Positions 18,525-22,999 of a stretch of DNA of 64,000 nt are shown one piece after another. Position numbers and translations under genes: made by a program. Under the pieces are notes generated by a model, which was given only the letters and a program-made list of their open reading frames with translations, was not told where the DNA came from and ran no database searches. The number at the start of each line of letters is the position of its first letter. The stretch's first letter is position 1. This DNA comes from Dehalococcoidia bacterium (GTDB lineage Bacteria; Chloroflexota; Dehalococcoidia; UBA2979). Where the stretch lies: contig OZ244720.1 in NCBI GenBank assembly GCA_965219085.1, positions 1,952,001 through 2,016,000 on the forward strand, given 5' to 3'.

Positions 18525-19495
18525 GCAGGGTGGCGCTGTCCCGGGACTCCGCTCCGGACAGGCTCGCTCAGCACGATGACCGTCGTCGCGCTCCCGGTGC
18601 TCGCGCCCACTCGCGGTCGGTCGCCGCCAGGCGGCCGCGTGCCGAGCCGCCGAACCACGTCTCGGCGCTAGATTCCCAGTTCGACTAGACTGTAGACAGG
18701 CGGGTCCTGAAGCTGGTCAACATCGTTGACGAGCACACGCGCGAGGCGCTGGCGATGGTGGCCGTGCAGGCGCATCGGCGCCGACGCCACCGCCTCAACG
18801 CTCGAGCGGATCGTGGCCTGGCGCGGGACGGCGCCTAGCAGGGTGCTGAAAAAGGCGCGGCCATCTGGCAGGATGGGGCTGGCGGCGGGGGCATAGCCTG
18901 GGAGGCAGCCCCGTGCGAGGTGACGCCGAGCGCCAGACCAACATGTTGCTGGCGGTGACGCCGGACTCGTTTGTCCCGGCCGAGCACCCGATCCGCCGCA
19001 TCAAGCCGATCGTCGACGCAGCGCTGGCCCGGCTCTCGCCGCTGTTCGACACGATGTACGCCAGGGGCGGCCGGCCCTCGATCCCGCCCGAGCACCTGCT
19101 CAAGGCGAGCCTGCTGATCGCGCTCTACTCGATCCGCAGCGAGCGCCAGTTCTGCGAGCGGCTGCGCTACGACCTGCTGTTCAAGTGGTTCTTGGACCTC
19201 AACATCTCAGACGAACCGTTCGATGCCTCGAGCTTCTCGAAGAACCGCGAGCGCCTGCTCGCAGCGGACGCCGCGCATGCCTTCTTCGCCGAGGTGGTGG
19301 CCGAGGCAAAGCGCCGCCGGCTGCTCTCCGCCGAGCACTGCACGGTGGACGGGACGCTGCTCGAGGCCTGGGCCTCACTCAAGAGATGGCATGAGGGCCG
19401 GTCTCTTCCTCAAGGGGGATACTCGCCCCCGAAACAGCGGCCTCGATGGGCCAGAACGGCTCTTTGCGGAGCTTTGACGAGGTAGGAGACCGGCC

Positions 19496-20584
19496 GTGCA
19501 GCAGGATACCGCAACGACGTGGAGCATTGAGGGCAAGGAAGGGTCAGGGGTCACCATCGGCCTCGACGTGGGCGACCGCTACACCCACGTCCACGCCCTC
19601 GGCGCCGGCGGGGAGGTGGTACGTGAGAGGCGCGTCCGCACCACGACGGCAGCGCTGGGCATGGTGCTGACCGGCCTCCCCCCATCGCGGGTCGTGATCG
19701 AGGCGGGGCCGCGCTCGCCGTGGCTGAGCCGCCTCATGGCGGACCTCGGCCACGAGGTGGTCGTCGCCAACCCGCGCCAGGTCGCGCTGATCGCCCGCAG
19801 CCAGCGCAAGACCGACCGGCTCGACGCCGAGTGGCTGGCGCGGCTGGGGCGCTTCGACCCCCAGTTGCTCGCCCCGATCCGCCACCGCAGCGAGGCGAGC
19901 CAGCACGACCTCGCCGTGGTGCGCGCCCGCGACGCGCTGGTGCGCTCGCGGACGCTGCTCATCAACCACGTGCGCGGGGCCGTCAAGGCCTGCGGAGCCG
20001 CGTTGCCGTCGTGCACGGCCGAGGCGTTCCACCGCAAGACGGCGGACCACATCCCCGACGGGCTGCGCCCGGCGCTGCTGCCGCTGGTGGAGGCGATCGG
20101 CGAGCTGACCGCGCGCATCGCGGCGGCCGGCCGCGAGATCGAGGCGTTGTGCGAGGCTCACTCCGAGACCGCGGCGCTGCGCCAGGTCACGGGCGTCGGG
20201 CCGATCACCGCGCTCACGTTCGTGCTGACGATCGAGGATCCTGGGCGCTTCCCGAAGAACCGCGAGGTCGGCGCCTACCTCGGGCTCGTGCCGAGGCAGC
20301 GCGACTCGGGCGAGCGCACGCCGCAACTCGGCATCGGCAAGAGCGGCGATCCGCACCTGCGGCGGCTGCTGGTGCAGGCCGCGCACTACATCCTCGGCCC
20401 CTTCGGGCCCGACACCGACCTCCGCCGCTGGGGTGAGCGCTACACCGCTACGGGGGCCGGTAACGCGAAGAAGCGCGCCGTCGTGGGCGTCGCGAGGCGG
20501 CTGGCGGTGCTGCTGCTCGCGCTGTGGAAGACCGGCGAGGTCTACGAGCCGTTGCGCGACGCCGCGGCGCAGGAGGCCGCGTAG
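19496..20584 (+). CDS. IS110-family DEDD recombinase/transposase
   Basis: IGLDVG, VVIEAG, KTDRLDA, GVGPITA, LGLVPRQRDSG. Confidence 0.95.
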   Translation: MQQDTATTWSIEGKEGSGVTIGLDVGDRYTHVHALGAGGEVVRERRVRTTTAALGMVLTGLPPSRVVIEAGPRSPWLSRLMADLGHEVVVANPRQVALIARSQRKTDRLDAEWLARLGRFDPQLLAPIRHRSEASQHDLAVVRARDALVRSRTLLINHVRGAVKACGAALPSCTAEAFHRKTADHIPDGLRPALLPLVEAIGELTARIAAAGREIEALCEAHSETAALRQVTGVGPITALTFVLTIEDPGRFPKNREVGAYLGLVPRQRDSGERTPQLGIGKSGDPHLRRLLVQAAHYILGPFGPDTDLRRWGERYTATGAGNAKKRAVVGVARRLAVLLLALWKTGEVYEPLRDAAAQEAA

Positions 20585-20908
20585 CAAGGCGCGGCGCCGA
20601 AGCAACCGACCAGGAGAGCGAGACTGAGACGGACCTGGGAGGAGGCCCAGCAAACCAACCACTGCACGTGATGCCGGGCAACGGGCGACTGCGAGGCGGT
20701 AGCGGTCCAACAAGGACGTTCAAGAGTTGGCAGCGCCCCCTGGAAGCAGGATGTGCCTTCATGCACCGGGCCCGATACGTGGCCCATCAAAGAGTGCGGA
20801 TAGAAGCTCGGCACAGGCTCCGTCAGGGGACATCACGAGCGGATCGGCCCCGATGTCGAGGAGCGCCACGCCCCGAGGAGGAAGCCGCCACGTCGGCCTT
20901 GCAGAAAG
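20585..20908 (+). ncRNA. Predicted bridge/seek RNA of the IS1111-type element
   Basis: Short segments match both sides of the actual target site and both sides of the circle junction (see findings); transcript limits unknown. Confidence 0.7.
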
Positions 20909-21819
20909 GTCGGGTAAGGGGCTGGCGCGGTACGAGCCGTAGGCAGTGGCGCTTATCCCGCCGGTTTCCCGCCGGTGCTCACTTCCACGTGCCGTAGCCA
21001 ACGCCCGTTTCCAGCCCCTCCCCTTCGAACCGTGCATGCGGTTCTCCCGCACACGGCTCACCGACGTCCTTCACCGGATGGCATTCGGCCCCGCCCGCCA
21101 CGCACGCTCCACAACGTCCCTGCGGTGGACTTTGTCGTAGAGCGCGTGAAAACGTCGCTCGGCTCGGCCTTGGCCGCCCGGTAGAGCGTGTGCTGTAGTT
21201 CTCGGACCTTTTGCTCGGCGGTTCTAGCCACGACGGGCACTCGCCAATCCTTCCCCAAGCTACACGCGCAGACGAAGTAGCGGCCCTTCCCTCACCGGCG
21301 GTTCTGTTGTCCGCTCGGCTCAATCGGTACTATGGCCGCCTCCGACTCCCTCCCGGCCGGCTACCCACTTCCCGGTTCGTCACCGGTTATAGGGCACCTC
21401 GCTCCGGCACCAATCCGCAGGCGCCGGACCGGGGAGGGCCTCCCCAGTTCCCGCCGTCACCTTCCACACGTTCCGCGCCCTCTACGCCGGGAGGTTCTTC
21501 GGGGTTGCGCCTCCAGGCTCTTCACCCCTTCCATGGCCTTCGCCCTGACGGCCGGGGCTCGGCTCCTCCTTGTTCCCACCATGCGGTGGGTATGTTCACG
21601 ACGCGGCAGACTTCGCTTCATGCTGCGGACCGCGTGGTCGCTCCCCCTCAAGGGCTTTCGACATCGGGCTCCGGCCCGGCCCGTTTCCAGACCCGACCGC
21701 CGATCTGCTACCGGGCCCCCTGGCAGTTACCCGGACCGGACTTTCACCGGTAGGCGACGACGAGCATGTCTCCGGACTGATCAGATCATTCTGCACCGTC
21801 CTTCGACTTCAGGGCGCAC
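20909..21819 (-). mobile_element. Group II intron (911 nt) with internally deleted RT ORF
   Basis: 5' GTGCG; ggtgaaagtcc domain I motif; domain V gagccgtgtgcgggagaaccgcatgcacggttcg; domain VI ending ..cccttacccgAC. Confidence 0.92.
21071..21240 (-). pseudogene. Vestigial group II intron-encoded protein
   Basis: KVRELQHTLYRAAKAEP / RRFHALYDKVHRRDVVERAW (RT N-terminal region, one frameshift) joined directly to ..PNAIR* just before domain V; no YADD. Confidence 0.8.
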
Positions 21820-22999
21820 ACCGTCCCTCATAGAAGCTACCGCCCGCGCGACGAGCAGGAGCCACCCCCGGGCGGACGCAACCCGGATGTCGACTTCCGC
21901 GGGCGGCGGCGCAGCCGCGATACGCATAGCTCCGGCACCGACCCGCAGGCGCGGCTGTACACAAAGGGAGCGGGGCAGACGGCGAAACTCAGCTACATGG
22001 GCCATCTGCTGACCGAGAACCGTCACGGTCTGGTGCTGGACGTGGAGTTGACCGAGGCGAACGGGTACGCCGAGCGCGAGGCGGCGGTCACGATGCTGGA
22101 GCGCAGCGTGAGCGGCTGCGGGACGCTGGGCGCCGACCGCGGCTACGACACGCGCGACTTCGTGGCGGAACTGCGCGCGCGCGGCGTGACGCCGCACGTG
22201 GCGCAAAACGACCGCGGCCGCCGCAGCGCCGTGGACGGGCGCACCACGCGGCATCGCGGCTACAGGCAGAGTCAGAAGCGACGCAAGATCGTGGAGCAGG
22301 TCTTCGGCTGGATGAAGACCGTGGGCGGCGGGCGCAAGCTGCGTTTCGTGGGCCGCGAGCGCAACCGCGGCTGGCTGGAGCTCACCGCCGCCGCCTACAA
22401 CCTCGTGCGCATGGCCAGGCTCGAACTCGCCCCTGCGTAGGCGCAGTGCGCCCTCCGGCCGGTCCGGGAGCCCTCAGAGGCCCCCGGGGGCAGGTCAGGA
22501 GGCCACCATCACGAACCCGGAGGCGGCCTCAAGCCGCCTCTCGCCACTCCGAGACCCCGGAAGGGCGCTTCTTCAGCACCCTGCTAGGTACATCCGTTGC
22601 GACAACGGGCCAGAGCTCGCGGCGAACCCGCTACGCGACCTGGTGCCGGTTCTCCAGCACTGGCAGCAACTACACCGAGCCCGGTGCGCCGTGGGAGAAC
22701 CCGTATGTCGAATCGTTCAACGGCCCGCTGCGCGACGAGTTCCTGGCTGTCAAGCACTTCGACAGCCTGCTCGATGCGCAGGTACTGATCGAGGGCTGGC
22801 GGATCGAGTACGGCACGAGTCGCCCGCATCGTAGCCTGGGCTGGCTCACCCCGGCGGCCTACGTCGAGCGCTGGGAGGCTCCGCAACATGCTCGACTCTC
22901 ATAAGTGGTGGTCTCGCGAGGAGGGTCCGGTCATCGGCATGCGAAGAGGTGGATCGGGGCCACAAGGAAGTCGTGTGGAACTCGCCGTCGGACCCGAAC

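Follow-up and report, generated by a model that had tools for sequence, protein, structure and literature searches.

A candidate RNA-guided insertion sequence of the IS1111 type within an IS5-family transposase gene of a Dehalococcoidia bacterium

The window (the whole stretch of DNA that was analysed, 64,000 nucleotides from a Dehalococcoidia bacterium) holds an IS5-family transposase gene in two parts, a 5' part at 18913-19385 (Pfam DUF772, E = 4e-22) and a 3' part at 21837-22440 (Pfam DDE_Tnp_1, E = 2.7e-16), which are joined in eight other copies in the same genome; the sequence and the list of open reading frames (ORFs) place an insert of 2451 nt between them, at 19386-21836. All features given here lie on the plus strand unless we state otherwise. 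An earlier note on this DNA had proposed both junctions, and they read as it proposed: ctcaag-AG / ATGGC on the left (19378-19390) and CCTCATAGAAG / ctaccgcc on the right (21826-21844). The core dinucleotide AG stands at 19384-19385 and again, within the last 17 nt of the right end, at 21835-21836, and AG is found on both flanks of every copy of the element. The left end (19386-19495) starts with ATGGCATGAGG, which is common to the copies, and includes a sub-terminal inverted repeat (19391-19401) that agrees at 10 of 11 positions with the reverse complement of 21821-21831; the latter repeat and the core AG make part of the last 17 nt of the right end (21820-21836), a segment also seen in the other copies. 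An rve_3 fragment (22446-22904) lies directly 3' of the IS5 copy.

Between the ends lies a recombinase ORF of 362 aa (19496-20584), matched by Pfam DEDD_Tnp_IS110 (PF01548, E = 2.8e-19) and Transposase_20 (PF02371, E = 4.6e-20), the DEDD (RuvC-like) N-terminal and the C-terminal domain that mark the IS110 family. With the NCBIfam model NF033542 ('IS110 family RNA-guided transposase'), whose cut-off is 140 bits, it scores 240. The ORF is intact, as had been claimed, and three copies encode the identical 362-aa protein. Among solved structures its only relatives are the transposases of ISCro4 and IS621, and the match is confined to the C-terminal domain (E about 1e-6). The IS1111 group is described as having a longer non-coding region downstream of the transposase gene and a GL-P----S(T)G motif (PMC11187229), together with sub-terminal inverted repeats of 7-17 bp (PMC11208160). 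In the window 341 nt of non-coding DNA lie 3' of the ORF (excluding the intron described below), compared with 110 nt on its 5' side, the recombinase contains GLVPRQRDSG, the sub-terminal repeats are present and, in the candidate guide RNA, the match to the top strand comes first. Judged from these sequence features, the insert is an IS110-family insertion sequence of the IS1111 type; its length is 1540 nt, to which a group II intron adds 911 nt in this copy.

The genome holds five copies of the element that are approximately 100% identical and six that are 85-87% identical. Four of the five near-identical copies (L001, which is the copy in the window, and L003, L004 and L005) occupy the same IS5 site in the same orientation; insertion that is specific for site and orientation, has no terminal inverted repeats and leaves a short core at both junctions is a trait of the IS110 family. 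Eight further IS5 copies are uninterrupted and read ...gctcaagag/ctaccg..., six of them with the exact 16-mer. Contigs of two public sequencing runs (X1 and X21) likewise contain the empty site, joining 19383 to 21835 with a 2-nt ambiguity. The target reconstructed in the earlier note (ctcaag-AG-ctaccgcc) is thus borne out by the empty copies and the run contigs, and its placement within the coding sequence of an IS5 transposase stands as well, this being a site that has been used repeatedly. The further suggestion that one insertion sequence here preys on another is supported by the four occupied and eight empty sites. The fifth near-identical copy, L002 (G000:C1:1857515-1859965), has an IS5 left flank and a right flank (tgaccgctg...) that is not IS5, matching its guide at 5 of 7 positions; a deletion or an off-target exchange on the right side may account for this.

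The right end of the window copy is interrupted by a group II intron on the minus strand (20909-21819; 911 nt, beginning GTGCG), in which Rfam recognises domains I-IV at 21618-21753 (RF02003, E = 1e-20) and domains V/VI at 20909-21061 (RF00029, E = 1.8e-6). We describe it as ORF-less, as 911 nt is too short for an intron-encoded protein in domain IV of the 576-aa reverse-transcriptase kind seen at L027. The copies L003-L005 lack exactly 20909-21819 and read ...gcagaaag/accgtccctcatagaag, and a contig of run X1 joins 20908 to 21820 without the intron. Position 20908, at which the earlier note had ended its non-coding stretch, is therefore the intron border rather than the end of the element; the other part of that proposal, that the non-coding end itself encodes an RNA of the bridge/seek type, is borne out below, whereas the intron that cuts the right end had been given no weight. 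Two full intron copies exist in the genome, 100% identical and both at the same point inside copies of this insertion sequence (L001 and L002). Another genome has a copy that is 99.9% identical at the same point of a related insertion sequence with other guides (L026:5182-6062), and a partial relative (86% over 480 nt) lies elsewhere in the window's genome, at G000:C1:3165839. In one RNA library, contig depth is 20-110 over the intron and at most 4 over the recombinase ORF.

The intron bears on whether the window copy can move by itself. With the intron in place, the element's last 17 nt are cut off from the RNA gene and from TTGCAG (20898-20903), which resembles a -35 box; being on the opposite strand, the intron cannot be spliced from the element's own transcript. 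Other IS110 elements are known to form a hybrid promoter where the ends of the circle meet (PMC12288879), and from the sequence the -35 of such a putative junction promoter would here lie 911 nt away. The copy might accordingly be a relic unable to move alone, a reading that we regard as unlikely. Against it stand an intact ORF, an intact RNA region and two intact termini, as well as undamaged sister copies from which protein and RNA could come; in addition, L001 and L002 are 100% identical over element and intron at different places in a genome that contains no other full intron copy, which suggests that the composite of element and intron still moved, perhaps helped by intron-less copies.

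The reading that we prefer, of an element whose recombinase works with an RNA from its own non-coding stretch, starts from four motifs named in the earlier note, all of which lie 3' of the ORF where it had placed them: ggcggtagc (20695-20703), tcaagag (20720-20726), ccatc (20784-20788) and atagaag (20800-20806). The first is the reverse complement of the core G plus ctaccgcc and is the predicted right target guide; the second is the same sequence as tcaag plus the core AG and is the predicted left target guide. The window contains a single instance of the composite ggcggtagc-N10-25-tcaagag, and 100 shuffles gave none. The order of the guides (20695-20703 lying 5' of 20720-20726) is the same in all types of the element that we recovered, and it is the order reported for IS1111-type elements by Siddiquee et al., in which the top-strand match is 5' of the bottom-strand match (PMC11187229).

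A consensus fold (RNAalifold on 20 representatives, one chosen per sequence type) defines the core of the candidate bridge/seek RNA at 20673-20815, consisting of a target loop, a small hairpin (20739-20750) and a donor loop. The target loop is closed by a stem (5' strand 20683-20693, 3' strand 20730-20738), and within it both target guides are unpaired on either side of another small hairpin (20705-20717, helix 3), with the right half-site guide first, as the earlier note had read it, and both lie between conserved stems. All 20 representatives, the most distant of them at 52% protein identity, keep the same nine pairs in the target stem, and because these never vary, covariation neither supports nor contradicts them. 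On the donor side, a stem (20763-20767/20792-20797) encloses a hairpin (20768-20772/20781-20785), and there is a closing stem for which two alternative helices can be drawn, 20673-20676/20809-20812 or 20752-20757/20810-20815. Over the whole consensus 98% of cells pair, compared with 35-45% when the partners are slid; changes on both sides are found in five pairs, three of these in the 20768/20785 hairpin. The minimum free energy fold of 20585-20908 alone (324 nt) is no more stable than those of shuffled sequences (z = -0.08), and a search of Rfam at E values up to 1 matched the RNA to no family, only the intron scoring.

Expression signals in the public runs are sparse over this region. One RNA-library contig covers 20713-20819 at a depth of 2.7 with 8 differences, and because of these differences we assign it to a relative; over most of the element there is no coverage by RNA-library contigs, and libraries of this kind can contain DNA. 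Contigs that skip from 20585 to 20728 and from 20585 to 20736 most likely come from relatives with different guide regions.

Within the window's own genome, the diverged copies keep the stems GGGCGACTGCG ... GCAGCGCCC and carry other bases at both guide positions; the genome as a whole has four different guide pairs, each matching its own flanks. Type B has the guides GGCAGAG and the reverse complement of AG-TGGGTG, and its flanks are ggcagAG/tgggtg; the type C guide CCACCAG corresponds to the flank cccaccAG, and the type D guide CCGCATAG to ccgcatAG. In three diverged copies (L007, L008 and L010), the right end is followed first by sequence that partially repeats the element. For L008 the actual right flank (AG/cagctcg) was predicted from the RNA before it was read, and it agreed; for L007 (AG/tgggtg, as at its sister copy L006) and L010 (AG/cagcctg) the flank after the last repeat also agrees with the RNA.

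We extended the comparison to other genomes. A search for relatives gave 26 loci from records titled Dehalococcoidia, Tepidiformaceae and, in one case, Acidiferrum; an order-level search gave matches in 10 of 99 genomes, including that of the window (G000), from which 40 places were fetched; and a sample of 401 genomes across the phylum contained no relative at E = 1e-40 except in the window's own genome. The covariation set comprised 76 fetched loci with a target loop, from 10 genomes, which collapse into 44 distinct combinations of guide and site (a few loci had been fetched twice, namely L040/L087, L041/L084 and probably L085 and L086 with members of the L036-L039 group, and these are absorbed in the 44). 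The scaffold is retained down to 52% protein identity, with about 20 distinct guide pairs placed on it. On the left flank, at least 4 of the 5 bases before the core match the guide in 33 of 40 cognate combinations (24 of them perfectly), compared with 8 of 640 non-cognate combinations; on the right flank, at least 6 of 7 bases match in 25 of 40 cognate and 27 of 720 non-cognate combinations. The copies are kin and not independent trials, so that these counts overstate independence, yet the contrast remains large. A change of a single base can be followed on both sides, the RNA CACCCACTT occurring with the target tgggtg and the RNA CACCCGCTT with the target cgggtg. Across these 76 loci and 44 combinations, 20695-20703, 20720-20726 and 20800-20806 all change together with their DNA partners, which is the behaviour that the earlier note had asked of its guides; the sequences compared thus show the complementarity, a scaffold that is conserved and three guides that covary with their DNA partners.

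The third of these segments belongs to the donor loop. The motif atagaag (20800-20806) is identical to the last 7 nt of the right end, and is unpaired in the consensus fold, and its reading in the earlier note as the left donor guide is supported: the RNA motif that follows GAGTGCG equals the 7-mer of the right terminus in 13 of 13 distinct combinations, in two of which it is ATGGAAG in both places, this replacement of ATAGAAG having occurred in the RNA and the right terminus of one clade of approximately 69% identity in three genomes. The only two occurrences of ATAGAAG in the window are the one in the RNA region and the one at the right terminus, where 0.71 are expected; 16 of 100 shuffles contained at least two. 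The claim that both loops carry their two guides with the right guide first holds for the target loop, and its left donor guide is supported, but the assignment of ccatc (20784-20788) as the right donor guide does not. C20784 and C20785, the first two bases of ccatc, are paired in the hairpin at 20768-20785 (helix 6), whose pairing is preserved by changes on both sides in three of its five pairs; the bases after the hairpin vary (ATCAAA, ACCGA, ACAGAC, ATCGA, ACGGA, GCATAC, ACCAA), whereas the left end always starts ATGG; and CCATC occurs 167 times in the window where 145 are expected, making one copy per 324 nt a chance-level event. Of the four motifs, ccatc alone was found to be partly paired and not to covary, the outcome that the earlier note had named as counting against a guide.

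We find a better candidate for the right donor guide in gccttc (20755-20760), in the 5' part of the donor loop. Apart from a single U.T mismatch in this clade, it would pair with the core G and the ATGGC that begins the left end. Across the family the segment has the consensus CCAUC, which is complementary to the core G and ATGG, and the base before this motif follows position 5 of the left end (C with G, G with C, A with U, G with U); at L058, where left-end position 4 is A, the RNA has U. Among the 14 distinct combinations of end and RNA, there are 10 in which the candidate pairs at no fewer than 5 of its 6 positions, and it overlaps a possible alternative helix. On balance we consider it rather probable that 20755-20760, in preference to 20784-20788, is the right donor guide. 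Variants of the left end, in which AT is followed by an additional base (ATAGGC..., ATTGGC...) or the first A is replaced by C (CTGG...), are also seen among loci L009, L026 and L069-L073, L036-L039 and L042, and L052, L053 and L074.

The donor loop is also where a simpler account can be weighed, in which the target loop alone guides, the protein finds the ends by their sub-terminal repeats and by the target-matching flanks, and the donor motifs are conserved for other reasons. An 82-nt RNA with the target matches sufficed for ISEc11, for which the donor needed the target flanks (PMC11187229), and in the present family the ends are almost invariant, so that donor covariation rests on few events and the right donor guide is uncertain. 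This account must nevertheless accommodate a 7-nt RNA motif that equals the right terminus in every combination and changes with it in one clade over three genomes, and in many IS1111 elements the bases that bind the donor are predicted by Durrant et al. to lie in a multi-loop (PMC11208160); we consider this account distinctly improbable. That the matches arose by chance or as captured flanking DNA, with no guide role, is hardly credible, for although ccatc is indeed at chance level, the composite target-guide pattern is absent from the shuffles and about 20 guide pairs, each made of one direct copy and one reverse complement at fixed scaffold positions, fit their own flanks.

We consider it very probable that the window contains an IS1111-type element in which a DEDD recombinase acts with an RNA, transcribed from the non-coding stretch 3' of the ORF, that has both a target loop and a donor loop; that such an RNA is made, is bound by the protein and directs the reaction is inferred from experiments on ISEc11, ISPa11, ISKpn4 and IS621. 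In the proposed mechanism, the element would exit as a circle in which the right end (...CATAGA-AG) is joined to the left end (ATGGC...). In the target loop, 20695-20703 would pair with the top strand of the right half-site (G-CTACCGCC) and 20720-20726 with the bottom strand of the left half-site (TCAAG-AG); in the donor loop, 20800-20806 would pair with the bottom strand of the right terminus, while the beginning of the left end would be bound by a short segment on the 5' side of that loop, most likely 20755-20760. Recombination at the AG core common to donor and target would then yield insertion in one orientation into ctcaagAGctaccgcc, in the coding sequence of the IS5-family transposase.

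Guides and flanks match poorly in 7 of 40 combinations on the left and 15 of 40 on the right, including those of L002, L009, L034, L035, L066, L069 and L071. At L035 and L066 it is the right flanks that mismatch their own guides. Guidance in trans was considered for L009, which has type B guides and an IS5-like site, and was set aside because the copy is a mosaic (its first approximately 150 nt are like type D, and the rest is 99-100% identical to type B), and we attribute its mismatch to recombination after insertion; for L034 it finds no support, the type that owns its site having been found in none of three genomes (its own assembly and two others), and this copy, too, is a mosaic. The guides of L069 and L071 specify one site, but the two copies sit in that of another type, of which 16 copies were fetched from that genome. 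Both are 100% identical over 1532 nt to three correctly placed copies, and since these five copies are identical end to end, mosaic recombination is excluded; the simplest reading is guidance in trans by a co-resident RNA. From these copies, and from the further elements described below that hit this element or its IS5 target, comes a broader proposal, that these Dehalococcoidia genomes might contain a network in which RNA-guided elements target each other and guide RNAs act in trans between relatives; we put it forward tentatively, as somewhat less probable than its contrary.

Several copies are followed by tandem partial copies of the non-coding end, each ending with the right terminus (L007, L008, L010 [G000:C1:2849993-2850740], L044, L057 and L046), with five termini in L010 and three in L057. 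Every junction in these arrays is 3' of an AG in non-coding DNA, and in L044 it is 3' of the DNA encoding the left target guide; insertion into a sister copy followed by deletion is a possible origin.

Other mobile elements are associated with this insertion sequence and with its target. A type D copy of the same genome sits in an rve/rve_3 (IS3-like) transposase gene (L010:1001-1498), and a second guide type is therefore likewise directed at such a gene. A second IS110-family element, unrelated to the first (approximately 1497 nt with a 407-aa transposase, in the opposite orientation), is found at L020 (G000:C1:1801561-1803160) and in four more IS5 copies, in all five lying 130 bp downstream of the first target and always reading ...gtacacgaag/.../ggggtcgg; the same IS5 is therefore hit by two RNA-guided elements. 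At L021 (G000:C1:3090750-3092180), an IS256/Mutator-family element with a 407-aa transposase interrupts an IS5 copy that already contains the second IS110-family element. A third element, of 1.28 kb with a 362-aa IS110-family transposase on the minus strand, is present at L026, L035, L039 and L045 (for example, L035:3797-5080), inserted at GGATAG/AAGCTC within the DNA that encodes the left donor guide of this insertion sequence. Finally, L027, L029-L033, L035, L047 and L066 (for example, L027:475-2392) carry a minus-strand group II intron that contains an ORF for a 576-aa reverse transcriptase. It is inserted after the second base of the left end, with the original left flank (gcgaagcAG/AT) 1.9 kb upstream and matching the guide; two group II introns home to the element's two ends.

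The mechanism itself is already known from the seekRNA and bridge RNA systems, both described in 2024, and the element is a probable new case of it in Chloroflexota, a phylum for which our literature search found no paper on bridge/seek-RNA elements. The rules published in 2024 could here be read directly from raw sequence in such a phylum. The approximately 20 naturally reprogrammed guide pairs on one scaffold provide a data set for the guide rules of IS1111-type RNAs, whose donor loop is less well understood than that of IS621, and the AG-core recombinase is a candidate for addition to the set of available tools.

Among the closest known systems are the elements for which a seekRNA has been described (ISEc11, ISPa11, ISKpn4 and ISPst6; Siddiquee et al. 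2024, PMC11187229). Like them, the present element has a DEDD transposase with the GL-P----SG motif, an extended stretch of non-coding DNA downstream of that gene, sub-terminal repeats and a single predicted RNA that matches the target in two short segments, of which the top-strand one comes first, and it shows natural redirection among close relatives. It differs from them in its host (Chloroflexota; Dehalococcoidia, Tepidiformaceae), in its AG core, in its target within IS5 coding sequence, in the evidence presented here for a separate donor loop and in its slightly longer protein, 362 aa where 330-350 aa is stated for the IS1111 family (PMC11187229). The bridge RNA of IS621 (Durrant et al. 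2024, PMC11208160; structures 8wt6 and others) has, like the RNA proposed here, a target loop and a donor loop, each with left and right guides, and a shared core dinucleotide; here, unlike in IS621, the RNA is 3' and not 5' of the gene, the guide order is reversed and the donor bases may lie in a multi-loop, and the IS621 protein is only distantly alike (E = 9.7e-7, C-terminal domain only). IS4321 and IS5075, also of the IS1111 family, target the terminal repeats of Tn21-family transposons (cited in PMC11208160); they too have a preferred site in another mobile element, whereas the site used here lies within transposase coding sequence. Like ISPpu9 with its Ssr9 module, for which separate downstream RNA modules are reported both beside and apart from full elements (PMC12288879), the present family has additional modules, but these are tandem partial copies that end in the right terminus.
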